Below are positions 902 through 20,800 of a stretch of 64,000 nt of DNA, one piece after another. The stretch comes from an uncultured bacterium (GTDB lineage Bacteria; Fidelibacterota; Marinisomatia; Marinisomatales; UBA1611): NCBI GenBank assembly GCA_964511215.1, contig CAZEER010000003.1, positions 6,457 through 70,456 of the forward strand. Direction: 5' to 3'. The translations under genes were made by a program, and so were the position numbers. The first letter of the stretch is position 1. Each line of letters opens with the position of its first letter. The notes under the pieces were generated by a model, which saw only the letters and a program-made list of their open reading frames with translations, ran no database searches and had not been told where the DNA came from.

Positions 902-903
902 AT

Positions 904-1092: not shown

Positions 1093-1094
1093 TT

Positions 1095-1403: not shown

Positions 1404-1414
1404 AATTTAATATC

Positions 1415-2017: not shown

Positions 2018-3729
2018 TTTACTGTTTGCGGACAGAAATCTTTTTCTTTTCCTGGAACACTATACTCATATGGACCATGATATATTTTCACCGGTGAATC
2101 AAAGTTTACATGAGGAAGTGGTGGAGATGGGGCTGACCATTCAACTGTTGTTGATCCCCAGGGATTCTGTTCTTTCAATTTTTTATTACTTAATGTTATA
2201 ATTATATTGAGGATAAAAGGTATTTGAGCTAAACCTAAAATAAATGCAGATATGGTCATAAATTCATTCCAATGGAGAATATCTGAAGCGTGGGCATATT
2301 GCTGACCACCATCATACATCCTTCTGGAAAGACCAGCCAGACCTTGAATAAACATAGGCATAAAGATACCGTTCATTGCTAGAAATGAAGGATAAAAATG
2401 TAATTTTCCCATCGACTCACTTAATTGTCTACCAGTTATTTTTGGGAACCAATAGTAGATACCTGCGAACAAAGCAAATAAAGTACCAGGAGCAACGACA
2501 TAGTGGAAGTGACCAATAACATAATACGTATCATGGAGATAAATATCTGACGCAGCTACACCCAGAGGGAGACCTGTTAGACCGCCGATGCCAAACATTG
2601 GGAGGAATGAAAGTGCAAAAAGCATAGGTGTGTTGAAACGTATAGATCCACCCCATAGTGATATGAAAAATGCGGTAAGAACCACAACTGATGGGATTGA
2701 TATTATCATGGTGGTTAATTGAAAAAAGGCACTCATAGACTGTCCCATGCCAGTTAAAAACATATGATGGGCCCAGACAATAAATGACATGAATCCCAAA
2801 AATCCAATCGCATAGACTAGTGATTTATATCCCCACAGAGGTTTTCGTGTATTGTTGGCTAAAATTTCACCAACAATTCCAATTGCTGGTAAAATCAATA
2901 CATAGACTTCAGGGTGTGCTAAAAACCAGAAAAGATGTTGCCACAATAACGGAGACCCTGATCCATAGGCCTCGACACCGCTCCCTGCGTAAACAAGGCC
3001 TGATGGTAGAAAGAAACTTGTGTCAGCCAACCTATCCATAAGTTGTAAAACCGCGGCAGCTTCAAGAGGTGGAAAAGCAAGAATTAGGAGGAAGGATGTT
3101 ACAAGCTGTGACCAGACAAAAAAAGGCAACCTAAACCAGGACAATCCCGGTGCTCTTAACTGGACAATGGTAACAATAATGTTCATTGATCCCAAAAGAG
3201 AAGAGGTAATTAAAAACACCATTCCCAATAGCCACATTGTCTGTCCAGATTCAAAAATAGATAGAGGAGGATAAGAAGTCCATCCGGATCGTGCAGCTCC
3301 TTCAGGTGTGAAAAAGCTTGCAACCATTATAACACCACCTAAGAAATATGACCAATAACTCGCAGAATTCAGTTTTGGAAATGCCATATCAGGTGCACCT
3401 ATTTGTAGGGGAACAAGGTAATTCCCAAAGGCACCTACTGCGAGTGGTACTACGCCTAAAAATATCATAATAGTTCCATGCATAGCACCTAGGGTATTAT
3501 AATTTTCGGGTAGCATAACGCCACCACTTTCAGAGAAAAACCAGTCTCCAATATATGGAATTACCTGCTCTGGGTAAGCCAACTGATAACGCATGATTGC
3601 CATCAGTATAAAACCAAACAGTAAAAAGAGTAGAGATGTTATGCCATACTGAAGTCCGATAATCTTGTGGTCAACTGACCAAACATATTTTTGGAAAAAA
3701 TTTTCTTCGTGGTGGTGTGATGAACTCAT
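2014..3729 (-). CDS. coxA: Cytochrome c oxidase subunit I (A-type haem-copper oxidase)
   Basis: 571 aa with canonical motifs WFLAHPEVYVLILP, HHMF, and GHFHYV near the C-terminal helices. It has 12 or more TM helices. Confidence 0.97.
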   Translation of the reverse strand: MSSSHHHEENFFQKYVWSVDHKIIGLQYGITSLLFLLFGFILMAIMRYQLAYPEQVIPYIGDWFFSESGGVMLPENYNTLGAMHGTIMIFLGVVPLAVGAFGNYLVPLQIGAPDMAFPKLNSASYWSYFLGGVIMVASFFTPEGAARSGWTSYPPLSIFESGQTMWLLGMVFLITSSLLGSMNIIVTIVQLRAPGLSWFRLPFFVWSQLVTSFLLILAFPPLEAAAVLQLMDRLADTSFFLPSGLVYAGSGVEAYGSGSPLLWQHLFWFLAHPEVYVLILPAIGIVGEILANNTRKPLWGYKSLVYAIGFLGFMSFIVWAHHMFLTGMGQSMSAFFQLTTMIISIPSVVVLTAFFISLWGGSIRFNTPMLFALSFLPMFGIGGLTGLPLGVAASDIYLHDTYYVIGHFHYVVAPGTLFALFAGIYYWFPKITGRQLSESMGKLHFYPSFLAMNGIFMPMFIQGLAGLSRRMYDGGQQYAHASDILHWNEFMTISAFILGLAQIPFILNIIITLSNKKLKEQNPWGSTTVEWSAPSPPLPHVNFDSPVKIYHGPYEYSVPGKEKDFCPQTVK

Positions 3730-3758
3730 TATAGTATATGATGTATCTTTATCTTATC

Positions 3759-4085
3759 TTAATCGATCTCTAAATTGTAATTTTCTTCAAATACTTCAGT
3801 GCCAAGCATTCTGATAGCATCCCATGTCATTTTAGTACAAACTCTAGCACAAACCTGACATCCTGTACATTCATTGTAACGTACCTGGACTGGGGGTATA
3901 ACTGGGAATTCGTATTTACCAGTTGCAACTGGCTCAATACAATCAACGGGGCAAAAGGGAACACATGCCTGACATCCTGTACAGTTATCTTCATCTACCA
4001 CCGCAATGAGTTTTGGTCGCTTTGTTTTTTCTCTAGCGTATTCAGGAAGATCGGGTATCCCTTTGAAATAGTTATATGCTGACAT
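3759..4085 (-). CDS. 2x[4Fe-4S] dicluster ferredoxin
   Basis: Two cluster motifs are present: CTGCQACVPFCP (CxxCxxCxxxCP) and CTGCQVCARVC (CxxCxxCxxxC). It sits 29 nt upstream of coxA on the same strand. Confidence 0.85.
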   Translation of the reverse strand: MSAYNYFKGIPDLPEYAREKTKRPKLIAVVDEDNCTGCQACVPFCPVDCIEPVATGKYEFPVIPPVQVRYNECTGCQVCARVCTKMTWDAIRMLGTEVFEENYNLEID

Positions 4086-4160
4086 GTATTATGTACTCTT
4101 AAAATAATCTAGATTAGAACCCAAATTTAATAATATTATTCCCGAATCAATGAAAGATTT

Positions 4161-4319
4161 TTATTTTAGTATATATTTCTCAATGGCTAATCCGGAGCCA
4201 AAAAAAATAGCACCAGCAAGCAGTAATCTAGGATCCATTAGACTAGGGAATTTTATTATAAATCCTACTGCAATCATGAACATTCCTAATAATTCCAAAC
4301 CTTTTGCCGCGTAGTACAT
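4161..4319 (-). CDS. Unlisted mini-ORF, 52-aa two-TM protein
   Basis: My translation is MYYAAKGLELLGMFMIAVGFIIKFPSLMDPRLLLAGAIFFGSGLAIEKYILK. The ATG overlaps the stop of the upstream 161-aa ORF (TAATG). It is below the track length cut-off. Confidence 0.4.
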   Translation of the reverse strand: MYYAAKGLELLGMFMIAVGFIIKFPSLMDPRLLLAGAIFFGSGLAIEKYILK

Positions 4320-4804
4320 TAATCTTTTTCGTTTTGATTAGGTTCCAATTTACTAAGGATATCAAGCTGTTCTTTAAATGCATTATTCTTAATCTTTAGA
4401 GTCCAGATATGATGAATAAATGCTAGAACAAATAAAGGGCCATGCAACGGAGCGGTTAACATTTGATTCTCTACAGCTCCTATATGGATTACCCATCCAC
4501 CGACTAATAAGATTGTAAGCATTAATTGAGGGAAAAGATTCATTTTTAATTTTCTTTCTCTTGTCCAGAGTTCAGCTTTACCAAATCCAGACTCAATTGC
4601 ATTTTTTAGAGCTTTACCTGTGGAAATAAAAAAATACATAACCACGGTCTCAGTAATTGTAAAGATTAGAATCATAAATAAAGAGAATCGGGTATGGCTG
4701 GCGCCTAAAATGCTGAAGTCCCAATATCCACTAGCACCAACAAGTATAAGGTTTATAAGGTTAGCCAGCATTAAAGCATAGCAGGAAATCATAAAAATGT
4801 ACAT
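4319..4804 (-). CDS. Four-TM membrane protein of unknown function, first gene of the cox operon
   Basis: Track ORF, 161 aa, with four hydrophobic segments and conserved-looking His residues (HIGAVEN, LHGPL, IHHIW). No family was recognised. Confidence 0.6.
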   Translation of the reverse strand: MYIFMISCYALMLANLINLILVGASGYWDFSILGASHTRFSLFMILIFTITETVVMYFFISTGKALKNAIESGFGKAELWTRERKLKMNLFPQLMLTILLVGGWVIHIGAVENQMLTAPLHGPLFVLAFIHHIWTLKIKNNAFKEQLDILSKLEPNQNEKD

Positions 4805-4953: not shown

Positions 4954-5655
4954 ATGAGTGTTAAATATTTAGTCGCTTTTATTTTTATTTTTGCTTTAGC
5001 TGATGCAGGAACCCTAAAAGGTCATGTGAGCTATATTGGAAGAAACTTTAAAAATAAGCCACTCCGAATGGATGCTGATCCTGTTTGCGGTTCGTCTCAC
5101 TCGGGAAAAGTTTATAGTGAAGCTTTCAAGTTAGCTGCAGATGGTTCAATGGAAGATGCATTAGTCTATTTGAAAAAAGTCAGTTATGATGGTACACCCT
5201 CTAAACCAGTAGTATTAGATCAGAAAGGTTGTGTATATGTGCCTCATGTTTTTGGGATGGTTGCAGGACAGGAACTCCTTATAAAAAATAGTGATGCGAC
5301 TTTGCATAATATCCATTCTATGCCAAAGGTGAATAAGGAATTCAATTTTGCAATGCCAAAAGTGGTGAAAGAAAAGAAAACTACATTTTCGAAATCAGAA
5401 GAATTTCCTTTTTATATAAAATGTGACGTTCATCCATGGATGAAATCATGGGTTTTGGTCTCTGATAATCCTTATTTTGCAGTTACAGATAAAAATGGTA
5501 ATTATTCTATTGATGGAATTCCTCCAGGGACCTATGAGGTTGTATGTTGGCAGGAAAAATTTGCAGCTAAGAAAAAGTTCATCATTGAAAATGTAACAAT
5601 AAATAGTGGAGAAACTGTCAAGGATTTTGTTTTAAAAGGTCCTAAACCAAAATAA
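4954..5655 (+). CDS. Secreted cupredoxin-like protein with a C-terminal carboxypeptidase-regulatory-like beta-sandwich
   Basis: It has a signal peptide. Candidate type-1 copper ligands are LHNIHS ... KCDVHPWM (His, Cys-x2-His-x2-Met). The tail NGNYSIDGIPPGTYEVVCWQEKF is typical of CarboxypepD_reg-like domains. AGGAG lies 6 nt upstream of the ATG. Confidence 0.55.
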   Translation: MSVKYLVAFIFIFALADAGTLKGHVSYIGRNFKNKPLRMDADPVCGSSHSGKVYSEAFKLAADGSMEDALVYLKKVSYDGTPSKPVVLDQKGCVYVPHVFGMVAGQELLIKNSDATLHNIHSMPKVNKEFNFAMPKVVKEKKTTFSKSEEFPFYIKCDVHPWMKSWVLVSDNPYFAVTDKNGNYSIDGIPPGTYEVVCWQEKFAAKKKFIIENVTINSGETVKDFVLKGPKPK

Positions 5656-5711: not shown

Positions 5712-6533
5712 ATGAAGCATGTACTTATATATAGTTTTTGTATTTTTTTTATAAGTTGTGAAAAAAATAAGAATATATATTGGGTTAAAGGAACCGTACA
5801 ATCTGTTAAACCAGAATTGAATAAGGTTATTATTGCGCATGATACTATTCCAGATTTTATGATGCCCATGGTTATGCCATTCTTAGTTAAGAATAAAAAA
5901 GAAATGGAATTCCTTAGAGTTAGTGATAGTATACACTTTCAATTAGTGTGGGATGATATTAAACCATATGCGAGGGATTTTGAGGTAGTAGGTCAGGGGA
6001 AGTTGATTGAAGAAGATGATTTCTTTGATGATGAATTTTCTGAAAAAAACATTGGCAATATTATTGATGATGGCACTTTTCTAGATGTAGATAATAAAGT
6101 AGTGAAATTATCAGATAGTGATGGTAGATACAGATTTATATCTTATATTTTTTCTAGGTGTCCTATGCCTAACATGTGTCCAGCAATAGTGATGAAAAAT
6201 CGTTATCTGGCTGATAACTTTCCAGAAGTAGATTTTATTATGGTGAGTTTTGATTATAAATATGATACTCCTAATGTTTTAAATAGAGCTTATGGTTTGA
6301 CTATTGGAGATTATAATAATTGGTATGTCTGGTCCAGCTCCGGTTACATAGATGATGTTTATAAACTAATTAGACAATCAGGCGGTAATTTCTGGGGAGT
6401 AGAGAAAGACAAAATTGGTCATTCTTTAAGTTCAATATTGATTGGACCAAAAAGAGAAATATTGGGCGTCTGGAAAGGGGATGAATGGGAAGCTAATCAG
6501 GTCGAGAATGCGATAATCCTCAATATGCAATAA
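5712..6533 (+). CDS. Lipoprotein fusing a CusF-like Cu(I)-binding domain to a SCO1/SenC-like thioredoxin fold
   Basis: Lipobox FFISC. VIIAHDTIPDFMMPMVMPF matches the CusF-like H..IP...MP.M.M.F pattern. FISYIFSRCPMPNMCP and GHSLSSILIGPKREIL resemble the SCO CxxxCP and conserved-His regions, but the Cys spacing is CxxxxxC. Confidence 0.6.
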   Translation: MKHVLIYSFCIFFISCEKNKNIYWVKGTVQSVKPELNKVIIAHDTIPDFMMPMVMPFLVKNKKEMEFLRVSDSIHFQLVWDDIKPYARDFEVVGQGKLIEEDDFFDDEFSEKNIGNIIDDGTFLDVDNKVVKLSDSDGRYRFISYIFSRCPMPNMCPAIVMKNRYLADNFPEVDFIMVSFDYKYDTPNVLNRAYGLTIGDYNNWYVWSSSGYIDDVYKLIRQSGGNFWGVEKDKIGHSLSSILIGPKREILGVWKGDEWEANQVENAIILNMQ

Positions 6534-6536
6534 AAA

Positions 6537-6558
6537 AGCCCATGATTATTTATGGGCT
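6537..6558. terminator. Bidirectional hairpin terminator between convergent genes
   Basis: AGCCCAT-N8-ATGGGCT hairpin flanked by an A-run on the left and a T-run on the right, between the stops at 6533 (+) and 6584 (-). Confidence 0.65.
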
Positions 6559-6583
6559 TTTAAAAGAATCTAATTAGTTTAGT

Positions 6584-9583
6584 TTACCAATCTTCATCAT
6601 CTCCCCAGTCATCTTCATCCTCCCACTCGTCGTCTCCTTCACTGTCTTCACCCGCACTATCAAAGTCATAACCATTCTCATCAAAATAAGATTTGATAAT
6701 ATCATCAATATTAGACTTGCCTTTTATAGACCATAAATAATCTCTTAATCCATCGAGCATTGCTGTTGTGTCTCCTCCAAGTGCTACCAGCGCTTTACCC
6801 CAATCTGATTCTGCACCTTCAAATGATAGTATCTCACTATCAGGAATATATGGTGCAGGCATTTTGGTTCCCGGCATTATTCCTTGTGGGTTTTTTAGCC
6901 ATTCAGTGACCCACTCAGCATTTAAACGTTCTTTTGTGATAACAAGGTTTGGAGCCCAGGTAGGTGCATCACCGGTAGGGAAGGTTTCACCATAGAAGTG
7001 ACAACTGTTGCACTGCCCAATTTCATGAAGTTTGTTCCCGGCAGCAAATTCTGTACTAGATTGATCAAATTGGTGGATGCCTCTATAATTTACAGTCTCA
7101 TGATCTATGTGCTGGAAGTAAGCTATAATTGCATCCCATTCTTCATCTGTTATTTGATGAAAGCTGGGCATTTTGACTTGCAGATTAGGTCTAATTATAG
7201 ATGGGTTATTAAAAAATGATAGCAACCAATCTGGATTGGCTTTTCGGCCTTCTGAATTAAGATTTGGAGGTCCATATTCAGGAGGACCAATATGTTCTAC
7301 TAATTGCCCACCTCTATTATCAATAAGATGGCATCCTTGGCAGTTGTATTTTTTGACAAGGCGGTGTCCTTTTTTATAAATATCAGGTGCTTTATTATGT
7401 GCTAATAGTTTTTCACCCACTTTATTTGAATTAAATGCAAGTACGGCTGTTGTAACAGCTTCAATTTCATCTTCAGAAAAATAGAAATTTGGCATTTTTA
7501 ACAGATCTAGGTGTTGGCTTTCTTTGCCTCTATCATATATCCGTGGAGTTCGTAATTTATTTTCGATCCATGCGGGAACTGTATGTGGGATATCATGTAA
7601 AAGTCCTAAGGCATATTTGCCTACCGGCTTTGATCCCTCTTCAGTGATCTCTACACCGATTGGTTTTGCATCATCAAATCCATCAATATGGTGACAGCCA
7701 AAACAACCATAATGGCGTATACTTTTTTCACCAATGAAATTTAATTTTTGGGAGCTACTCATTTTTTCTGCTTTTGCTTTTGCAAATTTTTCTGGATTTG
7801 ATTTTTTTAACCAATTAATTGTTAGCTCATTCAGGATATCTTTATCATATTGATGGTCAGGAGATTGTTCGAAGGCTTCATTTTTATCTTCAAGCAAGTA
7901 TGCTGTCAAATCTTTTGCTTGTTGAGGATCAAGTCTTAAGTTTGGCATTTTTGTGTCGGGCATATATTCTTGTGGATCCATTAGCCAATCATACAGCCAC
8001 TCTGCTGAAACCTTAGAACCTAACCCAACTAGATTAGGACCTTGTATCTTAGTTAAATTATTATAATTGTTAATAACAGGTGCATTCTCAGGTGTTTTTT
8101 CAGAGATATGACATCCCATACAACCAACAGCATTAAAAAGTTTTTCACCATTAACAGCATCTCCAATAAATCTATCACTGTTACTTCCTAGCGTTTTATC
8201 TTTTTTGGAAAATAAGTATTGAGTAATACCTGCAATTTCTACATTATTAAATGCAGTGATTTTAGGGTGCTCTTGATTTTTTTGTTCAAAAACGGCAGGC
8301 ATACGGGTGTTATACCTAAAATGCTTAGGGTTTTTCACCCATTTTGCTACCCAGTTTTCAGTTAATTTTTCATTTAACCTTTTCAGACTAGGTCCTGCCT
8401 TTGATTGACTGGGCCAGTTTGCATTATGATGACAACCATTACAGCCTGCTCTGTCAACAAGTGACAGACCAAAATTGATTTTTTCAGCTCCTGCAAGGTC
8501 ACTGGTATTAGAATGACATTTAAAGCAACTTGCCTGCGTGTATTTTGTGGGAAGCATTGGCGTTAGCCAGTGGTGGTTCACTTTCCAATCGTGTTCATCT
8601 ATCCACCTCTGTTCATCTTCAGGGCTATTAGGAGTATGAGAAGAAGATAAGAATGATGTACCACGGCTTCGTCCTGCGTGACAGCTTGTACAACCAAAAT
8701 TATTTAATGGGTGTGGTGATTTTGATGTGAGATAAAGATCTAAGTTTGGATGCGATGTATAGGGCTGCGGTGCATCTGAAAAATCTGGATTATTTATACC
8801 AAGGTGACAACTGGTACATCGATCTACGACAGGAACAGATGCAAAATTGACATCATACTTAACATCTGCGACTACAACCTGATGAACTTTATAATAAGGG
8901 TCAAGAAAATCAAGAATCGGAAGATCACGTACAATATCACCGAGCTTATTTGCAATAGTCATCTTATTGCGATCAAGTTTAGTTAATTTATTTTCAGTGA
9001 GTGTGAATTGCTTTTTATACTTATCTAATTCATCTTGTTTCTCTTTTACGATAGATTCGATTGATTTTATTTGTTTTTCTGTTGCAGTTATCTGTATCTC
9101 TGTTTCTTCTCTTGCTAATCTAAGTACATCAAGTCTATCAAGGGCTGCATTGTAATCATCTATATGGGTTGGGCCATGGTCTCCATGGGCATTATCTGCT
9201 TCAACAAGGTATTTTAGAGCATCAACATTTGCCTTATGACTTTGGTAGGTCATGTTCTGATCATAGTGCTTATCTTTTAATGAATTTAGTTTTTCAGTTA
9301 ATTCTTTTAGTTCATTACTCTGGCCATCATATTCTTTTTGAGCATCAGCCAATGCGCTTTCATAAATTGATTTATCTTTCTCAATCTCATTAGCTTGCTG
9401 CTCCAATTTTTGTTGAGCTATTTCAATTTCCAGTTTTCGAAATTCTTTCTGGTAATCTTTAAATTCATCATCATTATCATCAACAAACACCCAGACAGTA
9501 ACAGCAAGAAATATTATGGATGATATTGCAAACCATCTATTTAATAGGTTGATGTCCCAGTATCTTTCGTCGTTTTTAAACAT
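6584..9583 (-). CDS. Membrane-anchored octahaem c-type cytochrome, terminal gene of the Rieske/cyt b operon
   Basis: There are eight CxxCH motifs: CTSCH, CTSCH, CFKCH, CNGCH, CMGCH, CFGCH, CQGCH, CNSCH. There are five downstream Met-Pro motifs: RMPAV, KMPNL, KMPNF, KMPSF, KMPAP. It has an N-terminal TM helix, then about 170 aa of heptad-like charged sequence, and an acidic Trp-rich C-terminus. Confidence 0.9.
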   Translation of the reverse strand: MFKNDERYWDINLLNRWFAISSIIFLAVTVWVFVDDNDDEFKDYQKEFRKLEIEIAQQKLEQQANEIEKDKSIYESALADAQKEYDGQSNELKELTEKLNSLKDKHYDQNMTYQSHKANVDALKYLVEADNAHGDHGPTHIDDYNAALDRLDVLRLAREETEIQITATEKQIKSIESIVKEKQDELDKYKKQFTLTENKLTKLDRNKMTIANKLGDIVRDLPILDFLDPYYKVHQVVVADVKYDVNFASVPVVDRCTSCHLGINNPDFSDAPQPYTSHPNLDLYLTSKSPHPLNNFGCTSCHAGRSRGTSFLSSSHTPNSPEDEQRWIDEHDWKVNHHWLTPMLPTKYTQASCFKCHSNTSDLAGAEKINFGLSLVDRAGCNGCHHNANWPSQSKAGPSLKRLNEKLTENWVAKWVKNPKHFRYNTRMPAVFEQKNQEHPKITAFNNVEIAGITQYLFSKKDKTLGSNSDRFIGDAVNGEKLFNAVGCMGCHISEKTPENAPVINNYNNLTKIQGPNLVGLGSKVSAEWLYDWLMDPQEYMPDTKMPNLRLDPQQAKDLTAYLLEDKNEAFEQSPDHQYDKDILNELTINWLKKSNPEKFAKAKAEKMSSSQKLNFIGEKSIRHYGCFGCHHIDGFDDAKPIGVEITEEGSKPVGKYALGLLHDIPHTVPAWIENKLRTPRIYDRGKESQHLDLLKMPNFYFSEDEIEAVTTAVLAFNSNKVGEKLLAHNKAPDIYKKGHRLVKKYNCQGCHLIDNRGGQLVEHIGPPEYGPPNLNSEGRKANPDWLLSFFNNPSIIRPNLQVKMPSFHQITDEEWDAIIAYFQHIDHETVNYRGIHQFDQSSTEFAAGNKLHEIGQCNSCHFYGETFPTGDAPTWAPNLVITKERLNAEWVTEWLKNPQGIMPGTKMPAPYIPDSEILSFEGAESDWGKALVALGGDTTAMLDGLRDYLWSIKGKSNIDDIIKSYFDENGYDFDSAGEDSEGDDEWEDEDDWGDDEDW

Positions 9584-9591
9584 ATATAATA

Positions 9592-10710
9592 TTATATATT
9601 GAAAAAATATTCAGGTATTGCTATAAAATATTTCAAATTAAAAATCCATCTAAAATACATTTTCAATGGAAGCCCCAACATTACTAAACCAAAAACCATG
9701 AGAGAAACATATCGCACAGGTCCATAGGCCTCAAACATCTCTTTGAGCCAGGTTTTCGCTAGAATAATCGGCAGTATGAGTAAATAGATTCCCACTACCA
9801 TAAAGCCTAAAGCTTCTCTAAGTAATATGTTATCAGGGAGTCCTGTGCCAAGCAATTTCACCCAAAAATATTCAGATAAATTTACATTATTAAGTGCAAC
9901 AACTTTATGTGCATCCCAATATTCAAAAGGGCCATAAAAGTTCCAGTTAGGTCCTCTGAAAAATGTTCCAAGCACAATTAGAAATAGCCAGAGTACAATC
10001 CAGCCATACATAAAAATAAAGACCCCGACTCTCCTCTCTTTAAAAGAATAGTAACCATCTCCTTTTTTATTAATGTCCATATATGGAATAGCCATTAAAC
10101 CAAGTATGCAAAACATTGGTAGTACTATCCCAGCAATCCATGGGTCATAGTAGACAAGCATTTCTTGGAGCCCTAAAAAGTACCATGGAGCCTTAGATGG
10201 ATTGGGTGTTGATGCTGGGTTTGCGGGTTCTTCTAATGGTGCTGCAACTAAAATAGACCAGACTGTCAAAAATACTGTAAAGAGAATTAAGGCTATAAAT
10301 TCAATATACACTAAATCTGGCCAGACAAGAACTTTGTCGTCAGGATCGTTGTACTCTGAAGGCTTTAAACCTTTTTCTAATCTTTCATCATTTATATATG
10401 CCTTGTGCATCGCAAGCCAGGTAAAGAAAAAAATTGAATATACCATTAGAACGATTGGGAAATTATCTCCTTTCATTAGAATGACACTGAAGTTTTCATC
10501 CATATAGCCTACCGCGAAGAAAAATGTAATTACCGCCATGGCAATTGCACAACCAGGCTTAGTCCATAATAAATAAAATCCAAGCTTACGATTTATTTTA
10601 TCAAACCAGTCTGTAGGAGGAAATAAAATAGGTATCAAAACTGTCAGCATAGAAAAGCTAATAGTTGGTGACGAGAGATAATCTACAGTATGTTTAAATA
10701 CATCAAGCAT
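9592..10710 (-). CDS. Cytochrome b C-terminal half / subunit IV-like protein (extended, 372 aa)
   Basis: Polytopic. NPSKAPWYFLGLQEMLVY aligns with the Qo-site PEWY(F/Y) region of PetD/cyt b C-terminal domains. It lies directly after the b6-like gene. Confidence 0.8.
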   Translation of the reverse strand: MLDVFKHTVDYLSSPTISFSMLTVLIPILFPPTDWFDKINRKLGFYLLWTKPGCAIAMAVITFFFAVGYMDENFSVILMKGDNFPIVLMVYSIFFFTWLAMHKAYINDERLEKGLKPSEYNDPDDKVLVWPDLVYIEFIALILFTVFLTVWSILVAAPLEEPANPASTPNPSKAPWYFLGLQEMLVYYDPWIAGIVLPMFCILGLMAIPYMDINKKGDGYYSFKERRVGVFIFMYGWIVLWLFLIVLGTFFRGPNWNFYGPFEYWDAHKVVALNNVNLSEYFWVKLLGTGLPDNILLREALGFMVVGIYLLILPIILAKTWLKEMFEAYGPVRYVSLMVFGLVMLGLPLKMYFRWIFNLKYFIAIPEYFFNI

Positions 10711-10723
10711 AAATAATTCCTAT

Positions 10724-11518
10724 TTATAATGGCCCTGAGATACCACCGTCCTTTCTGATACGCCAGAAATGGACTGCCATAAAAATCATCATTATAAATG
10801 GTACTGCTATACAATGGATAACGTAAAACCTTAAGAGAGTTGCCTCACCAACAAATCTCCCACCAATTAGAGCAAATCGAACATCAGAGCCAATATGGAC
10901 TAGGTTTATATCTCCAATAGCTAGGAGACTAGCACCCGGACCTTCATGACCTATGAAAGGGTGAGCCCTCGCCATATTTGACCCAACTGTTACTGCCCAT
11001 ATAGCTAGCTGATCCCAGGGTAGCAAATAACCTGTAAATGATAAAAACATGGTCATTGTCATAAGCAATACCCCAACACCCCAGTTAAATTCTCTTGGAG
11101 GCTTATATGATCCAGTCATAAAAACTCGTAGCATGTGAAGCCAAACAACGAGAACCATTGCATGAGCTGCCCAACGATGAAGTTCACGCATTATACCAAG
11201 AGGCACCTGCTCGGTCAAGTCTATAATATCAGTATAGGCATATTCAACCGTTGGGCGATAGTAAAACATCAGAAGGATGCCGGTAATAGTAAGATTGACA
11301 AAGAGAAAAAAAGATAATCCTCCCATGCACCATGTATAGCCTACTTTCACTGCATGTTTAGGCAATCTTGCAGGATGAAGATGTAAGAAAACGCTACCTA
11401 GAACTGCATGCATTCTCTGTCTACGGGTATGAGGGACACCTGACCTAATAATTGATTTCCATACTTGGGATTCACCTAAGGTTTCAAGGATTGATTTTTT
11501 ATTTTGTTTTTCAGCCAT
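10724..11518 (-). CDS. Cytochrome b, b6-type N-terminal half
   Basis: The LHRWAAHAMVLVVWLH His pair is 14 residues apart. The second pair, VIHCIAVPFIMMIFMAVHF, is 15 apart. The C-terminus WRIRKDGGISGPL matches the cytochrome b6 terminus (RKQGISGPL). Confidence 0.9.
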   Translation of the reverse strand: MAEKQNKKSILETLGESQVWKSIIRSGVPHTRRQRMHAVLGSVFLHLHPARLPKHAVKVGYTWCMGGLSFFLFVNLTITGILLMFYYRPTVEYAYTDIIDLTEQVPLGIMRELHRWAAHAMVLVVWLHMLRVFMTGSYKPPREFNWGVGVLLMTMTMFLSFTGYLLPWDQLAIWAVTVGSNMARAHPFIGHEGPGASLLAIGDINLVHIGSDVRFALIGGRFVGEATLLRFYVIHCIAVPFIMMIFMAVHFWRIRKDGGISGPL

Positions 11519-11548
11519 TATTTAAGATTAATATTATTAGAAATTTAT

Positions 11549-12103
11549 TTACACTTTTAAATAAGATTCAGGGTTTTCCCATTCACCCTTTTCCCATTTA
11601 AAACTCTTAGTTTTATCTACTAAAATTTGTCCATCATTAGCAAGACTAATTTTAAATCGTTCTAATGGTCTAGGAGCAGGACCTTCAAAATGAATACCTG
11701 TCATCCTAAAACCACTGCCATGACAGGGACATTTAAATTTTGATTCTACCGGAAGCCAATTAGGCGTACATCCTAAGTGTGTACAAACCGTTGAAAGAGC
11801 AAAAATAGATTCTTCATCTCTGACAATCCAAGCATTAAACTGTTTTTTAAATTTTATATCAACAGAATTTTTAGAAAAATCATCAGGATAACCAATTTTA
11901 AAAGTCTGAGGTGGTTCAAATAAAACATTTGGGAAAAGAAAACGAACAATGATTGTAAAAAATCCCCCAGTAACCCCTAAATATGCTAGCCAACCAACAG
12001 ATAGCCAGCTTAAGAATCCTCTCCTATCAGTTTCAGTACCTTTGTATGCATTATCAGGAGAAGATCCTACTGCGGCATTTGGAACCATTTTTTCTTCAGA
12101 CAT
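11549..12103 (-). CDS. Rieske [2Fe-2S] iron-sulfur subunit
   Basis: CTHLGC and CPCHGS boxes are at the correct spacing. There is an N-terminal TM anchor preceded by RRGFL (Tat-like). Confidence 0.92.
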   Translation of the reverse strand: MSEEKMVPNAAVGSSPDNAYKGTETDRRGFLSWLSVGWLAYLGVTGGFFTIIVRFLFPNVLFEPPQTFKIGYPDDFSKNSVDIKFKKQFNAWIVRDEESIFALSTVCTHLGCTPNWLPVESKFKCPCHGSGFRMTGIHFEGPAPRPLERFKISLANDGQILVDKTKSFKWEKGEWENPESYLKV

Positions 12104-12106
12104 AAG

Positions 12107-12988
12107 TTAGATAACCTTATCGTAATTTTTCTTTAATGTTTTCATTGCAGCATTTCTTATTTTAAGATTTTCATCTGACTTTGCCAGATGCACAAGTTTT
12201 GGTTTAAACCTTAGATCATTAATAATCGAGGTTGCTTCAATTGCGGTAAGAATGACTCTTGTAATTTCATTATAGTCAAGCTCTGGGAAGGTCAACAAAT
12301 ATTCTCTATCCATAAGATTCTCAATAACTGAGACAGATGATTTCTCACCCATCTTTGCCAAGGCGATTGCAGCATCCCATCTAATATTTGGTTCATTATC
12401 AATTAAAAGTTCATTTAATACCGGTATAGATTTTTTGCTACCAATGAAGCCTAAAGACATAGTAGCAGCTAGACGTTCATCCTGATAGTCCGAGTTTTTG
12501 ATAATCTTGATTAATTCAGACACTGCCGTACTTGCTTTTACCATTCCCACAGACTGAATAGCTGCTAAACGAGATTCTCGGGATTGGTCTTGTAGACCAT
12601 TTAACAACTCTTCTGAATAAAAACTGTCTCTTGTTGCGCCCATTGCAATCGCTAAATAAGCACGTACAAGTGGGTCGTCATTGACAGCATGTTTATAGGC
12701 AGATATCATTTGGCTCTTAAAAGCAGGGTCACTGGGCACTGTCTCAGGATTATTTAACACTTTGGACAATTCATAGGCAGATTGCCATCTTTTAGTTGCA
12801 GATCCAATTTTAACTTGATTTAAAAGTGCAGAGGCATCTTCTGTTTCATATGTAATAAATCTAAATAATAGGAAAAATACTGCACCGAAGATTGCAATCA
12901 TAAATGGAATAAGAAAAAAAGAATAGAAGAGTGTGTAGATACGACTCGAATCATTTTTTTCCATTTCTATAGTTGTTGCGTTATTCAT
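12107..12988 (-). CDS. Membrane-anchored HEAT-repeat protein
   Basis: One N-terminal TM helix followed by repeated (I/V)R..AA.ALG..G units: VRAYLAIAMG, SRLAAIQSVG, ERLAATMSLG, IRWDAAIALAKMG, IRNAAMKTL. The stop is 3 nt from the Rieske start. Confidence 0.75.
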   Translation of the reverse strand: MNNATTIEMEKNDSSRIYTLFYSFFLIPFMIAIFGAVFFLLFRFITYETEDASALLNQVKIGSATKRWQSAYELSKVLNNPETVPSDPAFKSQMISAYKHAVNDDPLVRAYLAIAMGATRDSFYSEELLNGLQDQSRESRLAAIQSVGMVKASTAVSELIKIIKNSDYQDERLAATMSLGFIGSKKSIPVLNELLIDNEPNIRWDAAIALAKMGEKSSVSVIENLMDREYLLTFPELDYNEITRVILTAIEATSIINDLRFKPKLVHLAKSDENLKIRNAAMKTLKKNYDKVI

Positions 12989-13040
12989 AAAGCTAAAAAT
13001 TAGGTGGTGAATTTATTCTATAATCTTTTCTAAGAAAAAA

Positions 13041-13214
13041 CTAAATATCATTTTTATTTTTTTTATTATTGTTGTTTAGTTGTTCAAGATCTTGTCGAAG
13101 TATACGAGTCAATCTTGAAAGTTTACGAACATCTTTTTTCACTTTTACTAGTTCATTGACGAGAATCATTGCAAATACAAGAACCAAAAATGAAATGATA
13201 GGGAGAGCATCCAA
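13041..13214 (-). CDS. Unlisted mini-ORF, 57 aa, single TM plus charged tail (TTG start inferred)
   Basis: My translation is (M/L)DALPIISFLVLVFAMILVNELVKVKKDVRKLSRLTRILRQDLEQLNNNNKKNKNDI. It is in frame one codon after the preceding mini-ORF stop. No ATG would preserve the TM helix. Confidence 0.35.
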   Translation of the reverse strand: MDALPIISFLVLVFAMILVNELVKVKKDVRKLSRLTRILRQDLEQLNNNNKKNKNDI

Positions 13215-13217
13215 ACT

Positions 13218-13364
13218 TTAATCCTGTTCTCCTTTTTCACTCTTTTTTTTGAGTTGCCACCCTAAGAGGACAGGAAAAAAAAACAATATAATGCAACTCA
13301 CTGCAAGTAAACCGACAGCCCATTCTAGGTTTCGCATTAGCCATTCCAGAGTCAACCATTCCAT
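13218..13364 (-). CDS. Unlisted mini-ORF, 48 aa, single TM
   Basis: My translation is MEWLTLEWLMRNLEWAVGLLAVSCIILFFFPVLLGWQLKKKSEKGEQD, checked codon by codon. It has an ATG start and a TAA stop. Confidence 0.4.
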   Translation of the reverse strand: MEWLTLEWLMRNLEWAVGLLAVSCIILFFFPVLLGWQLKKKSEKGEQD

Positions 13365-13377
13365 ACGCTAATTATTA

Positions 13378-13485
13378 TTAGAATACCCAAGTGACAAGGG
13401 TAACATATACTAGGAGTAATGCAGTACAGGCTATCATTGAAATGACCTGAGTCTTAGTAACGGTATGTTTAGATGTTTCTGACAT
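13378..13485 (-). CDS. Unlisted mini-ORF, 35 aa, single TM
   Basis: My translation is MSETSKHTVTKTQVISMIACTALLLVYVTLVTWVF. The ATG lies 2 nt after the stop of the 437-aa ORF. Confidence 0.4.
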   Translation of the reverse strand: MSETSKHTVTKTQVISMIACTALLLVYVTLVTWVF

Positions 13486-13487
13486 TG

Positions 13488-14801
13488 TTATTTTGCTGAT
13501 CTTTTTGCTTTTATTACTGCAGACTTAATTTTTCCGCGTAGTACTCTGTTTTCTAGGGCATTAATCTCTTCCATATCCCCTGTAAGGCCTTTAGCAACCA
13601 ATCTATCCAGTAATTCTTCATCTGTTTCTTTTTTTGAGGAACCTTCATTGTTTGGCGAGGTTGATTCATTCGTAGATAACTTAGGCATGGGCGGTCTTTC
13701 TATGGATCCTCTATTTATTTTCACCATCATTGCCTTTGCTTTACCTCTAATTATTTTATCATCATGACTGTTTACTTTATCCATGTCTCCATCAAGCCCT
13801 ATATTGACAAAGTAGGCAACTAATTCATCTTTAGATAGCGAAGAAATACCTCCGCCAGAAGTAGTAGTAGTTCCAGCAATTGGTTTTTCAGGGCAAGGTG
13901 GTATTATACCTGTTCTTTTTGATTTAACAATTCCCGCTTTAGCCATTCCACGTATTGGCTTTTGAGGAATAGCATCTACATAATCCATATTGCCTTTTAT
14001 ACCCATATTAATTGCATAATCAATATAGTCTTGTCTAGATGAAAACCCTCCATCTTGTGATGTATTATCCGTACTATCATTGACTTGCTCATCATCAGAT
14101 AAAAAATCTACTTTGGGGATAATGCGATCAAGGTTTTGTAAAATTTTTGCCTTTTCGTTCCAATTCAGCTGACTTAAAATCGATAAAAGACCTTGAGATG
14201 AGCGAGTACAGGTTACCCAGACTCCATAATCGGATTCACGGATTGAGAATTGGATGTATTCCATCATAAATGGATTGTTTCTAAATGTGAAGCCAAACTC
14301 TTTCTCCTTTTCAAGAGTCATAATCCTACATTCAAACCAAGGTGCAATCGTTTTTGGCCGAATTTTGAAATAGTTACCAGGTTTTAATTCTAAATGATCA
14401 AAAGAATATTGATGTACATAACGCTTGGTATCTATAACTGGTAATGCGCGCTGTATACCATAAAACCAGACATTATACATTTCCAAGGATGTTAGCATTT
14501 CCCATATTATTTCTTTTGTAGTAGCAAAATGATGTTCTACTTTGCTCTCTCCTTTGAAAGGGCTCCACTCATTCCATGATATTCCAATGCCATTGTCAGG
14601 TACAGGGGGTATTTTTAGCGTTGCTTCTTTTTGTTGAAAACCATCTATTTCTAAATCTTTTAGAGAATGGTGCTCAATCCTGCCATCTGGAAACTCAAGC
14701 TCATACTTTGTTGGGTAAAAATAAATCTGTTTAACAGTACCTTCTTGACCAGTTTCGCGAACAGTACAGGATGTTCCTAATTTTATTCTATTGAGAATCA
14801 T
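13488..14801 (-). CDS. Hypothetical protein: small N-terminal beta domain, SRPBCC-like middle, three C-terminal ~45-aa repeats
   Basis: Track ORF and first gene of the bc operon. The three repeats are DYIDYAINMGIKGNMDYVDAIPQKPIRGMAKAGIVKSKRTGI, DELVAYFVNIGLDGDMDKVNSHDDKIIRGKAKAMMVKINRGSI and EELLDRLVAKGLTGDMEEINALENRVLRGKIKSAVIKAKRSAK. The SRPBCC call is from pattern only (IIWEMLTSLEMYNVWF ... EKEKEFGFTF ... VWVTCTRS). Confidence 0.75.
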   Translation of the reverse strand: MILNRIKLGTSCTVRETGQEGTVKQIYFYPTKYELEFPDGRIEHHSLKDLEIDGFQQKEATLKIPPVPDNGIGISWNEWSPFKGESKVEHHFATTKEIIWEMLTSLEMYNVWFYGIQRALPVIDTKRYVHQYSFDHLELKPGNYFKIRPKTIAPWFECRIMTLEKEKEFGFTFRNNPFMMEYIQFSIRESDYGVWVTCTRSSQGLLSILSQLNWNEKAKILQNLDRIIPKVDFLSDDEQVNDSTDNTSQDGGFSSRQDYIDYAINMGIKGNMDYVDAIPQKPIRGMAKAGIVKSKRTGIIPPCPEKPIAGTTTTSGGGISSLSKDELVAYFVNIGLDGDMDKVNSHDDKIIRGKAKAMMVKINRGSIERPPMPKLSTNESTSPNNEGSSKKETDEELLDRLVAKGLTGDMEEINALENRVLRGKIKSAVIKAKRSAK

Positions 14802-14811
14802 TATTTATTTT

Positions 14812-14825
14812 TTGATTTATATCAA
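14812..14825. promoter_or_regulatory. Perfect FNR/CRP-family consensus box TTGAT-N4-ATCAA
   Basis: The sequence TTGATTTATATCAA reads directly at 14812-14825. It lies in the 142-bp divergent region between the bc-complex operon (ATG at 14801, minus) and ctaA (ATG at 14944, plus). Confidence 0.45.
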
Positions 14826-14943
14826 ACTATTATGAAAAAAATAGTTTTAAATAGGTCCGTAAATTAATCATTTGTATCATTTTCTAAAGTGGAAAAGTTA
14901 TGCATAATGACTAAAATAATATTTTTAACTTATCGGCTCTTAT

Positions 14944-17869: not shown

Positions 17870-20800
17870 TCAAATTATTTTTACTAAGCCGCCAAATTTT
17901 TTATTAATCTGGAATCCCTGTTTGGCAAAAAACCTTTGGGCATAAAAGCCAACTGTAATGATCTCTATATTTCTATGTTTCATACGTTTATATAGGTCAG
18001 ACATTAGACGCTTACTCAAAAAAATATTTTGATATTTTTCTTTTATTACTACCCATTCGAGATGAATCCTATTTTTTCCCAGATTTTTCCAGTATAGACC
18101 TCCAACAAGCCGGTTCCTACTATTGAATGAAAATAGAAATTCATGCTCTGCAGTAAAAACCGCTGATAATGAAGAGTCAGAAAGCAGCGTATGAAATTGT
18201 GCGATTTCTTTAGGAAGGAATGGTGGTCTAATACGATACAATTTACCATCCTTACATTCAGTTTGATAAACTAAGTCAATACGAGCTTTGTCTCCTATAG
18301 TGGTCGTGACAAGTTCTACATAGTCAGCAGCATCAATGTGAGGGAAAAGCATTCTAGCAAGGAAAAACTTTTCACTTTCATTTAATTCTACTGTGGTTTG
18401 GATGTCTGAAATACGATCTTGGATATTCCAGGGACTAAGTTTATTCTCTCTTAGATCCTTAATCAGAGAGCGGAATTTATTCGTAAGATCAGGGTTCTCA
18501 TCTTTAAAGCAAGTCATCATAAAAAATCTTACACGAGTTTCCGGATATTCATCTAATAATCCATCTAATTCATAATCTTTATATAATTCCTGCAAGATTG
18601 ATGCTTTAGCATTAAGAGTAGCCTCTTGATTCAAATCCAACCAGCGCTCATATCTTAGAGATGCGAATACTACAGGCTTTGTTAATACTCCAAAATGATC
18701 TATCTCATTCAAAAATTGATTGATCCTATCTTTTGTTAATCCAACTAGTTTACATTTCTTTTTAACTTTATTATCGTCCATTTCTAGTTTGAGTTCTTCA
18801 AGAATGTTTTTACCTTTTTTAACTTTTAGCGCTTGAATTGTTGCAGAAAAAATAACTTCCCAATCTGACATATGTGTCAGTCCACTGTATCTTTTTTCAG
18901 TTTTTATAATATAATCTGTGTATAAAGACAAAAAATGCTCTGCCAATGAAACCATAGGTTTGCGACCAGAAATTGATATCAATCTTGTACCAGTTTTATA
19001 GTCATGTTGAGGTATAATTAAATTATTAGGTACTGGTGGTTGAATTGATAATTTATAATATGTTTTCCGCCAGAATTCTTGATAGGCTTGTATACCATTC
19101 CAGATAAAATGTAGCCACCGCATTTGCCAGCGGTCAACTTTAGTTCGATCGCTTATATCATTTTCATTTCGTTGTAAATAAGTAGCTAAAGTTTCGCCTT
19201 GTATATATTCTTCAGTATATAGATGCTGCTCAGGCCAGTATCCACCGAAATTTTCCACTAATTGATGACCTTTAAAACTCGAGCTCATGGTAATTAACCA
19301 CTTTACTTCTTCATCGATAAATTCACTGTCCCAACCTTCATTTAGGTTTATTACCACATTATGTGTACCAAAATTTCTTGTTTTCATCAGTACTCTGAAT
19401 ACGCTTTTGTTATTGCGACTTCCTAAGTGTGTGATCCAAATACCATTTTTACTTATATCATTGAGCCCTATTAAATAGTGTTTTGAAAATAAGAAAATTG
19501 ATTCTCTTATCAGCGATGTTTCAATAATAGCGTTTAAGATGCGTTTTTTATGTTTTTTACGCACATTTTCATCAAATGTAACAATATCTTTCCAGGTATA
19601 TTCTTGCCCTGTATCAGGGTCAATGGTAATTGTCGCTGATTTCCCTATCCATGTTCGAAATCCGTTTACTAAACTGTAATACCCTTTCTGTACGGTAGAG
19701 TGGATAGGTTTAGGTATATCAGACAATAACCACCTTATCAATTCAGATCGTGACCACACAAATCGTGTTGGATGAAGTGTCCCGTATTCAGCTAAAAGCA
19801 GTAATAATGTTTTAATAAAATCTTGTTCATTCTGCTCAACCTTTATTATGTCTTGGTGGCTCTTATAAAGATATTCCACTATGGATTTGAAATGATCATC
19901 ATTAGTGCGCTTTATATCAAATCTAAATTCTTTCGTGGGATCAGATTTTTTTTGAAAAAGATATGCTTCTCGAAGCATTACAATAAAAATACTCCCTGAA
20001 AGCAAAGGCGAAAGTGACTCAACTAGTTTAACGCGAAAAATAGGATTAGAATGATCTTGGTAGTTTAAAAAAGTGTCAATTATCACATTAGACCAATTAC
20101 TAGAAGAGTTACCTGTGATAGTATCAAGAGTTTCAAAAACAGAAATATCATTATTTATAAAGGAATTAACTGATTTATGAATACTGAATAAAAGGGTATC
20201 AATTTTTTCAGAAGATAATTTTGATGAGCTAGATAATTGAGCTAGAGTCTCTAGCCTATTGATTTTCAGAGAGCTGTTTATTTTTGCTTCTTTTAATCTG
20301 TAGATGGAGCTTCCTGTGAAATTGGAAAAATTAAAATTACCTAGCCATAGGCTAGGGCATTGTATTACAGTTTCTAAGTCTAGGATATTTGTAGTAGAAC
20401 TATAAAAAAAGTCACCCATTTGGATAGTGTTTTTTGACCATTTCAATATTAATGATCTATCCTGATCAGAAGTAGAAATAGAATTACCATCCCAAGAAAG
20501 GTTGCTTTTTACTGTTCCAATTTCTCTCAATAGCCAGTTTGGTATTTTAATTTCTTTGGAACCATAATAAAGCGATAAATAATTTTTTTCATAAAGGGGG
20601 CTGATTATATGATTAAAATTTTTTAAAATTGTTTTCCGTTTGAATGTACCTTTCTGAGTTATTTCACCTTTCTCTTTGGAAAAATTTCGTTGAATAATTA
20701 CATAATTCACTATTCTTTCAAAAGGTGAAAGAAAACTATTAACTGAAAGAATCATTGAACTAAAAATTTCTCTAATTTCATCATCATTTAAAATATCAAA

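Follow-up and report, generated by a model that had tools for sequence, protein, structure and literature searches.

The nine-gene cluster on the minus strand (positions 6584-14801) of a 64,000-nucleotide stretch of contig CAZEER010000003.1 (assembly GCA_964511215.1), from an uncultured bacterium, raises the question of which complex it encodes, which of its genes belong to that complex and where the electrons go. The whole stretch, referred to here as the window, has a G+C content of ~33%. The nine co-directional open reading frames (ORFs) encode, in order, proteins of 437, 35, 48, 57, 293, 184, 264, 372 and 999 amino acids (aa), including a Rieske protein, a split cytochrome b and a very large multihaem cytochrome c. 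We describe the gene content, motifs, synteny and genomic linkage of the cluster and conclude that it probably encodes a respiratory, quinol-oxidising Rieske/cytochrome b complex III of Marinimicrobia (SAR406), belonging to the b6-like class with an APWY motif and an octahaem cytochrome c. Marinimicrobia are among the most abundant heterotrophs of the dark, low-oxygen ocean, and no description of their complex III was found in the literature searched, which was a limited library.

A preliminary description of this DNA, made from the sequence alone, had reported the nine minus-strand ORFs with gaps of no more than ~55 nucleotides (nt). All coordinates and lengths proved correct, and the gaps are 2, 13, 3, 52, 3, 30, 13 and 8 nt in gene order, the largest being 52 nt. 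The same description had placed the genes in an apparently non-photosynthetic heterotroph, in agreement with the Marinimicrobia/SAR406 lineage of the host.

The Rieske/cytochrome b6 core and its octahaem cytochrome c

Profile searches with Pfam and NCBIfam verified the identities proposed for the Rieske protein, the N-terminal cytochrome b/b6 half, the PetD-like half, the HEAT protein and the c-type cytochrome domains (Table 1). Each of the nine products has many homologues, and the cluster is not a chance feature. For the cytochrome b6 (up to 99% identity) and the octahaem protein alike, close homologues were found in metagenome-assembled genomes (MAGs) and single-cell genomes of Marinimicrobia/Neomarinimicrobiota (SAR406). 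A scan of one genome per species for relatives of the cytochrome b6 gave 80 loci, in which ORFs were called and compared with the nine products. The series Rieske, cytochrome b6, subunit IV (SUIV) and octahaem cytochrome was present in nearly all 80 loci.

A twin-arginine motif, DRRGFL, marks the Rieske protein, whose cluster-binding boxes, CTHLGC and CPCHGSGF, contain both disulfide cysteines. These boxes are invariant in 77 loci, the second reading CPCHGSG[FY] throughout. Its nearest NCBIfam models, PetC and the bc1 iron-sulfur protein, both scored below their cut-offs. The 'S-F' signature of the second box denotes a medium-high potential type in the scheme given by Kao and Hunte (PMC4122944). 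In the cytochrome b6, the haem ligands H114/H128 on helix B and H235/H250 on helix D are spaced by 14 and 15 residues, respectively, and are at least 97% conserved. The motif TWCMGG (CxGG) provides the cysteine for the covalent haem cn/ci, as in b6f and Firmicute complexes; it was found in 79 of the 80 loci and reads TWCAGG in one. The protein ends in RKDGGISGPL, and the solved structures nearest to it are b6 chains (1.2e-40), with bc1 cytochrome b further off (~5e-24). The b6f-like core with split cytochrome b, 14/15 His spacing and RKDGGISGPL terminus that had been read from the sequence beforehand was thus seen in full. As a side observation, residues 45-49 of the cytochrome b6 form an N-terminal LHLHP motif (H46, H48) that is at least 97% conserved in 81 sequences from several phyla and may match a His which, in AlphaFold3 models of the Kuenenia complexes, serves as ligand to an additional b haem between the monomers.

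SUIV is predicted to have ~8 helices, with three extra helices at the N-terminus, a PetD-like core at residues 110-243 and two extra helices at the C-terminus. Both extensions are conserved across phyla. The sole solved relative is the b6f subunit IV (1.5e-7), and the APWY motif was present in all loci whose motif region was readable. An exhaustive search with SUIV gave 273 clusters (50% identity) at E<=1e-30, showing a widespread but not huge family. Of the features that define the b6f-type 'green clade', the locus has the split cytochrome b in adjacent genes, the 14/15 spacing and the CxGG cysteine; it does not have cytochrome f, to which the 999-aa protein gave no match, or a three-helix subunit IV, with ~8 helices predicted here. 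The features of the APWY clade, namely the APWY Qo motif, the Rieske S-F/S-Y signature and an octahaem gene directly downstream of SUIV, are all present.

The 999-aa protein contains exactly eight CxxCH motifs, at residues 256, 298, 353, 381, 488, 627, 748 and 858. Its N-terminal transmembrane (TM) helix is followed by a helical hairpin of ~170 residues and three N-terminal haem sites, then by five class-I haem domains of the His/Met type and a very acidic C-terminal tail. The TM helix, with its N-terminus inside, lies at residues 11-35 in the AlphaFold2 (AF2) prediction, which also has long helices at 40-132 and 141-203 (pLDDT 70-90). The eight haem motifs occupy the same columns across 14 aligned orthologues (927-1585 aa) from several phyla, and nearly all intact orthologues, 927-1809 aa long, carry eight CxxCH motifs. 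In the multi-phylum alignment, the M-P pairs at M428, M546, M697, M805 and M908 are conserved, as are H278, H291, H316 and M343. There are hence conserved sixth-ligand candidates for all eight haems, suggesting that the protein is an electron-transfer wire rather than a catalytic multihaem enzyme. No HAO, NrfA or CxxCK signature was found in the protein, and the search of solved structures returned just single class-I domain matches, at E>1e-4. The earlier proposal that a very large octahaem cytochrome c replaces cytochrome f or c1 is upheld.

Table 1. Coordinates of the features discussed, in positions of the window.
Feature	Position	Strand	Support or remarks
Haem-copper oxidase operon: 161-aa four-helix protein, 2x[4Fe-4S] ferredoxin (108 aa), COX1, COX3, COX4, 62-aa and 74-aa proteins	677-4804	-	
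Secreted cupredoxin-like protein, 233 aa; type-1 copper motif H...CDVHPWM, CarboxypepD_reg-like domain, basic tail	4954-5655	+	TIGR02657 3.1e-5
Intrinsic terminator-like hairpin and U-run, directly 3' of the octahaem gene, between convergent genes	6528-6561	-	Folding versus shuffles
Octahaem cytochrome c, 999 aa	6584-9583	-	Eight CxxCH; Pfam Cytochrom_C, CBB3, FixO
Extended subunit IV (SUIV), 372 aa; Qo motif APWY	9592-10710	-	PF00032 9.1e-6; PetD TIGR01156 1.4e-7
Cytochrome b6-type subunit, 264 aa; 4 helices	10724-11518	-	Pfam Cytochrome_B PF00033 9.7e-40
Rieske [2Fe-2S] subunit, 184 aa; twin-arginine signal anchor	11549-12103	-	Pfam Rieske PF00355 5.6e-10
HEAT-repeat protein, 293 aa; one N-terminal TM helix	12107-12988	-	Pfam HEAT_2 PF13646 1.6e-22; HEAT_PBS 1.4e-9
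Single-helix membrane protein m57, 57 aa; TTG start, basic amphipathic C-terminal helix KLKKEVRKL	13041-13214	-	TM prediction
Single-helix membrane protein m48, 48 aa; N-terminal DWLTLEWLM, basic C-tail	13218-13364	-	TM prediction
Single-helix membrane protein m35, 35 aa; conserved Cys in SM(I/V)xCTxLL	13378-13485	-	Translation, TM prediction
Soluble protein g437, 437 aa, first gene; N-terminal beta domain, SRPBCC/START domain, three helical repeats	13488-14801	-	AF2, Foldseek
AT-rich divergent intergenic region, 142 nt	14802-14943	.	Presumed promoter region in both directions

Extent of the operon and its accessory genes

The simplest reading of the nine genes is a single transcription unit, since the gaps are only 2-52 nt, no internal signals rise above chance and a strong terminator follows the last gene. 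The terminator hairpin has a 10-bp stem with a folding energy of -12.8 kcal/mol (z=-3.2; none of 200 shuffles was equally stable) and is followed by UUUUUU. Inside the cluster, 3 terminator-like signals were counted against 4.9 expected from shuffles, and 35 promoter-like matches against 37.6 expected, so that the internal signals which the preliminary description had named as able to split the cluster did not exceed the shuffle expectation. The divergent intergenic region at the other end is the sole gap of >100 nt around the cluster. On its far side lie ctaA-sco-ctaB-DUF420 on the plus strand, a divergent layout that is kept in most close Marinimicrobia loci. An Rfam scan of the window gave no matches.

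The full order from g437 through m35, m48, m57, HEAT, Rieske, cytochrome b6 and SUIV to the octahaem gene is present in the closer Marinimicrobia. Deeper Marinimicrobia have HEAT plus the core, usually with m48. Vicinamibacterales (Acidobacteriota), several Planctomycetota and one Verrucomicrobiota MAG have HEAT, Rieske, cytochrome b6, SUIV and a large cytochrome c, and Pirellulales and Gemmatales have Rieske, cytochrome b6, SUIV and a very large cytochrome c with no adjoining HEAT gene. The accessory genes are therefore syntenic with Rieske/cytochrome b6 in relatives, HEAT in four phyla and the others in Marinimicrobia. The idea of a nine-gene complex fared less evenly: the gene order is kept in the closer Marinimicrobia, but only HEAT and the four core genes travel together across phyla.

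HEAT orthologues directly upstream of Rieske were recognised in Marinimicrobia, Vicinamibacterales, several Planctomycetota and the Verrucomicrobiota MAG by a shared helix (predicted at residues 16-49 in the window protein), an RWQ motif and the repeat layout. This common layout indicates one orthologous family over four phyla. Synteny was also examined in reverse, on metagenome contigs, using three acidobacterial HEAT sequences as seeds and counting loci with at least 300 nt downstream. Rieske was directly downstream of HEAT in 60 of the 66 loci, and the complete series from HEAT to the octahaem gene was visible in 27. In a profile search with the HEAT alignment, all 120 matches listed were from Marinimicrobia, and no further lineage came to light. 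The long Rieske ORFs of Pirellulales contain no hidden HEAT domain. We infer a conserved fifth component in the HEAT protein, which would act as a subunit of the complex or as an assembly factor.

Identification of the HEAT protein as an E/F-type phycobilin lyase or NblB was rejected, with scores of 25-38 bits for CpcE, CpcF, CpeY and NblB against cut-offs of 220-600; it shares with the bilin lyases just the generic PBS-lyase-type HEAT repeat. A more speculative role, and in our view a very improbable one, is that the protein could insert or ligate the single-thioether haem cn into cytochrome b6 in bacteria without the cyanobacterial CCB system. This is suggested by the PBS-lyase-type repeats, as found in enzymes that form tetrapyrrole-cysteine thioethers, and by the position of the gene directly upstream of Rieske/cytochrome b6 in four phyla. 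The family alignment lacks any conserved Cys or His, and the predicted membrane topology of the protein is ambiguous, so this role is not favoured above that of an ordinary structural subunit. The haem-cn attachment factor outside cyanobacteria has been called 'a mystery' (Dibrova et al. 2017, PMC5600118).

The first gene product, g437, had been described as a repeat protein with a likeness to SRPBCC proteins, and both features were confirmed. Its three basic C-terminal repeats of ~45 aa gave pairwise local scores of 76-89, compared to a shuffle mean of ~21 (sd ~4.5). The AF2 model (mean pLDDT 75.7) has a beta-sheet plus helices at residues 72-227, and the top 50 Foldseek matches in the PDB were all SRPBCC proteins with a probability of 1.0, including 3q63, PYR1 and the CoxG-type 2ns9 (E ~1e-6). 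The SRPBCC part is weak by sequence (AHSA1, E=0.02) and clear by predicted fold, which has the helix-grip arrangement. No membrane segment was predicted in g437 and no Pfam domain was found. Among its 371 homologues, Marinimicrobia was the sole named source in the matches listed, and in ~23 of 44 Marinimicrobia loci the gene precedes the mini-genes. Quinone handling for bc1 complexes is a role of START-domain proteins such as Coq10, a parallel that offers a lead for g437 rather than a result.

The three mini-membrane proteins are each predicted to have one TM helix. The widest conservation is that of m48, present in 36 Marinimicrobia loci, deeper branches among them, while m35 and m57 are conserved in 24 and 25 related loci, respectively. 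Differences at codon positions 1/2/3 were 4610/2373/6135 for m35, 13136/6274/17580 for m48 and 7903/4363/9366 for m57; in all three, substitutions are of the coding type, with position 2 < 1 < 3. The preliminary description had likened these peptides to PetG/L/M/N of b6f. The single predicted helix stands, but homology does not, as the peptides have no Pfam match at E<=0.1 and occur only in Marinimicrobia; the likeness is one of size and single-helix topology, an analogy at most. Upstream of HEAT in the acidobacterial loci there are no mini-gene equivalents, and housekeeping genes (dCTP deaminase, Ndk) and a common 64-aa two-helix protein are found there. g437, m35 and m57 are missing in deeper Marinimicrobia, and all four lineage-specific genes are missing in other phyla. 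From this patchy distribution, they cannot be essential to the catalytic core. The mini-proteins and the SRPBCC protein are lineage-specific additions, presumably either supernumerary subunits or assembly/quinone-handling factors. In one deeper Marinimicrobia locus (L033:386-8338), a 2650-aa ORF lies directly upstream of HEAT in place of g437 and the mini-genes.

Electron acceptors and the direction of flow

The cluster is flanked by genes for COX1, COX3, COX4, a ferredoxin, a four-helix protein, a CusF-SCO fusion, CtaA, SCO1, CtaB and DUF420, an island that is conserved in Marinimicrobia. Linkage to oxidase and haem-A genes recurs in Marinimicrobia, in Acidobacteriota-like loci (L046, 48, 49, 52 and 55) and in Planctomycetota. 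In the other phyla, CtaA/CtaB/SCO/DUF420 or COX2-COX1 come after the operon, the latter in Planctomycetota, where a CuA-type COX2 was found directly before COX1 in five loci.

A secreted cupredoxin-like protein is encoded nearby (Table 1). Its match to the amicyanin model is weak, and the H, C, H and M residues are invariant in a cross-phylum alignment. In other phyla, the octahaem gene is immediately followed by cupredoxin homologues, in two tandem copies in Pirellulales and Gemmatales. In all Marinimicrobia loci examined, the octahaem C-terminus (6584-6673 in the window) is strongly acidic, ending in DDW with a net charge of -8 to -19 over the last 30 residues, and the Marinimicrobia cupredoxin C-terminus (5620-5655) is basic, ending in PKKK, wherever it was recovered; neither tail is present in other phyla. 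These tails are suggestive and may reflect electrostatic docking. Because the copper ligands are conserved, the homologues directly follow the octahaem gene elsewhere and the tails are complementary in Marinimicrobia, the cupredoxin is likely the electron acceptor of the octahaem cytochrome.

The cupredoxins appear to form an unannotated secreted family with the spacing C-x2-H-x2-M, as in amicyanin. Members, which also carry a CarboxypepD_reg-like domain, are encoded next to the octahaem gene or just behind it in Marinimicrobia, Acidobacteriota-like and Planctomycetota loci (for example L046:14888-15676, L055:14793-15644, and L071:17072-17935 and 17998-18906). A CusF-like copper-binding domain fused to SCO1/SenC is encoded at 5712-6533 (+), convergent with the octahaem gene and conserved beside the cupredoxin gene in Marinimicrobia; it probably serves the cupredoxin or the oxidase as a copper chaperone. 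Elsewhere in the window, 50801-51223 (-) encodes a 140-aa lipoprotein-like monohaem cytochrome c (CFRCH; PF13442, 5.4e-6), which may be a further electron carrier of the periplasm. At 17870-22450 (-), a conserved neighbour of the haem-A genes in close Marinimicrobia encodes a 1526-aa protein that combines an AMP-binding (acyl-adenylate-forming) domain at its N-terminus with a GNAT acetyltransferase domain at its C-terminus.

By homology with bc1 and b6f, quinol would be oxidised at a Qo site to which cytochrome b6 and the APWY loop of the eight-helix SUIV both contribute. The first electron would pass to the Tat-exported, medium-to-high-potential Rieske cluster and on to the membrane-anchored octahaem cytochrome, whose roughly three N-terminal haems and five His/Met class-I domains would serve as a periplasmic wire. 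The second electron would cross the membrane via haems bL and bH and the covalent haem cn to the Qi site, as in a Q cycle. From the octahaem wire, electrons would most likely reach the amicyanin-like cupredoxin and then the adjoining A-type haem-copper oxidase. This forward operation, from quinol to oxidase, is the most likely direction because of the oxidase/haem-A/copper-chaperone island, the S-F Rieske signature, the expression of oxidases in SAR406 and the lack of an anammox-type NAD(P) oxidoreductase gene in the cluster, as searched with Pfam and NCBIfam. SAR406 has been described as a chemo-organoheterotroph that encodes and expresses low-affinity (aa3-type) cytochrome c oxidases (PMC5596340).

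Operation in reverse, or bifurcation, in which a high-potential donor would feed the quinone pool or a low-potential acceptor instead of aerobic respiration, is in our judgement highly improbable. The APWY motif, which has no acidic residue, has been tied to reverse operation (PMC4122944), the related Kuenenia complexes have been proposed to bifurcate towards NAD(P)+ (PMC12954380), and the conserved LHLHP of cytochrome b6 could match the extra b-haem site of the anammox models; yet neither an NAD(P) oxidoreductase nor another n-side redox subunit is encoded in the cluster, no lithotrophic donor system was seen in the window, the host lineage has been described as an organoheterotroph with expressed aa3-type oxidases, and the operon sits among oxidase, haem-A and copper-chaperone genes in several phyla. 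We also consider it unlikely that the octahaem protein acts as a terminal reductase, or leads electrons to another acceptor such as N-oxides, sulfur compounds, metals or extracellular acceptors, within a dedicated anaerobic module. Its eight sites are all CxxCH with conserved sixth-ligand candidates, and the link to aerobic oxidase genes is consistent across phyla; its multihaem size and weak Pfam matches to the MtrC domain, c7 and c3 would fit such a module, as would the anaerobic respiratory genes carried by some SAR406 lineages (PMC5596340). One haem domain (residues 379-459) did exceed the SoxX cut-off (TIGR04485; 70.6 versus 61 bits), but the model is a 78-position monohaem domain that fits one of the eight domains, and no soxA/YZ/B, other sox or reductase genes adjoin the octahaem gene. 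Also in favour of such a module, NCBIfam places cytochrome b6 and SUIV nearest to ExtP and ExtQ of the Geobacter selenite/tellurite cluster, but both equivalog models were rejected, with scores of 265.4 against a cut-off of 290 and 65.2 against 150, respectively.

A narrower complex is quite possible, although we lean away from it: the functional unit may comprise HEAT, Rieske, cytochrome b6, SUIV and the octahaem cytochrome only, with g437 and the mini-proteins as co-transcribed assembly or regulatory factors, or passengers, rather than Pet-like subunits. The confinement of these genes to Marinimicrobia, and of g437, m35 and m57 to a sub-clade, speaks for this, as do the housekeeping genes at that position in acidobacterial loci, the lack of homology to Pet subunits and of a membrane segment in g437. 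Conversely, the lineage-specific genes are spaced by 2-13 nt with their order strictly kept wherever they are present, the mini-proteins are all single-pass membrane proteins under purifying selection, and bc1 and b6f complexes commonly have supernumerary subunits of a single helix. As for the assignment as a forward-running complex III, several points weigh against it. A CuA-type COX2 motif was absent both from the 64-kb window and from every Marinimicrobia locus examined, which leaves the oxidase end of the chain only partly accounted for; the COX2 gene may lie in another part of the genome, or the oxidase itself may be of an unusual kind. The AF2 haem domains of the octahaem protein are of low confidence (mean pLDDT 57), the complementarity of tail charges is a correlation within a single lineage, the four lineage-specific genes are patchy in distribution, and the positive-inside rule gives an ambiguous topology for the HEAT protein (K+R 23 versus 18). 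Furthermore, no member of the class has been purified, we infer both the Q cycle and the direction of flow, and Kao and Hunte considered that APWY complexes may run in reverse (PMC4122944).

Comparison with known systems

The preliminary description was right on the gene identities and overstated their novelty. It had called the operon non-canonical, allowing that an earlier account of the same architecture for a characterised complex would undermine this, and the architecture has in part been described before. The operon of Nitrospina gracilis is b6f-like, with a Rieske protein, a split b6/subunit IV and, as its sole adjacent cytochrome c, 'an atypical octaheme cytochrome c' (Lücker et al. 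2013, PMC3578206), and Kuenenia stuttgartiensis and Methylomirabilis oxyfera were reported to have 'exactly the same operon structure' (PMC3578206). What stands is that none of these complexes has been purified or solved. The core described here is a new member of this known, never purified class; it extends a known family and does not overturn current understanding. The locus is distinctive by its cross-phylum HEAT gene, its Marinimicrobia-specific SRPBCC and mini-membrane genes, its aerobic context and its cupredoxin link. In the literature library already mentioned, which cannot prove novelty, we found no description of the HEAT partner or the cupredoxin link, and the mini-membrane proteins and the SRPBCC protein appear undescribed. 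The HEAT partner, the cupredoxin and the oxidase operon without a visible CuA subunit together offer candidates for extra subunits, haem cn assembly and the route from complex III to oxygen.

The nearest solved structures are those of cyanobacterial and chloroplast b6f (1VF5, 2ZT9, 1Q90, 6RQF), which share the 14/15 spacing, the haem cn cysteine, the GISGPL end and the Rieske protein. In contrast to b6f, the window cluster has no cytochrome f and no PetG/L/M/N homologues, has APWY rather than PEWY and five extra helices in SUIV, and is respiratory. The actinobacterial bcc-aa3 supercomplex and the Firmicute b6c complex offer a functional analogy, in which a multi-domain membrane-bound cytochrome c acts as a wire to the oxidase, and the cluster has a weak QcrC match (2.3e-8); membership of QcrC, like that of PetD for SUIV, was rejected, the matches being either below cut-off or domain-level artefacts. 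These systems differ in being dihaem rather than octahaem, in the unsplit cytochrome b of Actinobacteria and in having no cupredoxin intermediate. The Geobacter ExtO/P/Q/S proteins (selenite/tellurite) provide the nearest NCBIfam models (ExtP for cytochrome b6, 3.5e-79; ExtQ for SUIV, 6.7e-18), whereas the window cluster has no Ext outer-membrane or rhodanese genes and a different context.

Closer likenesses, drawn here from published descriptions, are to Nitrospina, Kuenenia (kustd1480-1485, kuste4569-4574) and Methylomirabilis. Shared with these are a four-helix b6-like cytochrome b with haem cn, a subunit IV with extra helices and, in place of cytochrome f, a membrane-anchored multihaem (hexa- or octahaem) cytochrome c. 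The Kuenenia models published in 2025 have b6-like cores, a five-helix subunit IV and hexa-/octahaem cytochromes; long helices of kustd1485 are reported to wrap round the complex, and a possible extra b haem at the dimer interface is also predicted (PMC12954380). The wrapping helices resemble those predicted at residues 40-203 of the 999-aa protein. Unlike these operons, the window cluster contains neither an NAD(P) oxidoreductase subunit nor an HAO-like partner, has ~8 instead of five helices in SUIV, and adds the HEAT, SRPBCC and three mini-membrane genes and the aerobic oxidase island.

In published bc classifications (PMC4122944, PMC5600118, PMC3509893), the core would, judged by its motifs, fall with the APWY clade or subfamily G. 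The APWY clade was defined by Kao and Hunte (2014; PMC4122944), at a time when none of its members had been characterised, with a discussion of reverse operation. Subfamily G of Dibrova et al. (2017, PMC5600118), whose main text does not name Marinimicrobia, holds such sequences, and these authors regarded the haem-cn attachment machinery outside cyanobacteria as unknown. The APWY clade, subfamily G (Dibrova et al. 2013/2017) and groups A1/A2 (Baymann et al. 2012) resemble the window cluster in the APWY motif, the split cytochrome b, the CxGG cysteine, the Rieske Mid+/high-potential signature and a patchy distribution over multiple phyla. They differ in that the APWY clade has been discussed mainly in terms of reverse electron flow, whereas the context of the window points to aerobic respiration. 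The operon thus places a little-studied octahaem APWY Rieske/cytochrome b6 complex in an aerobic chain, which argues against the class being mainly a reverse-flow device.

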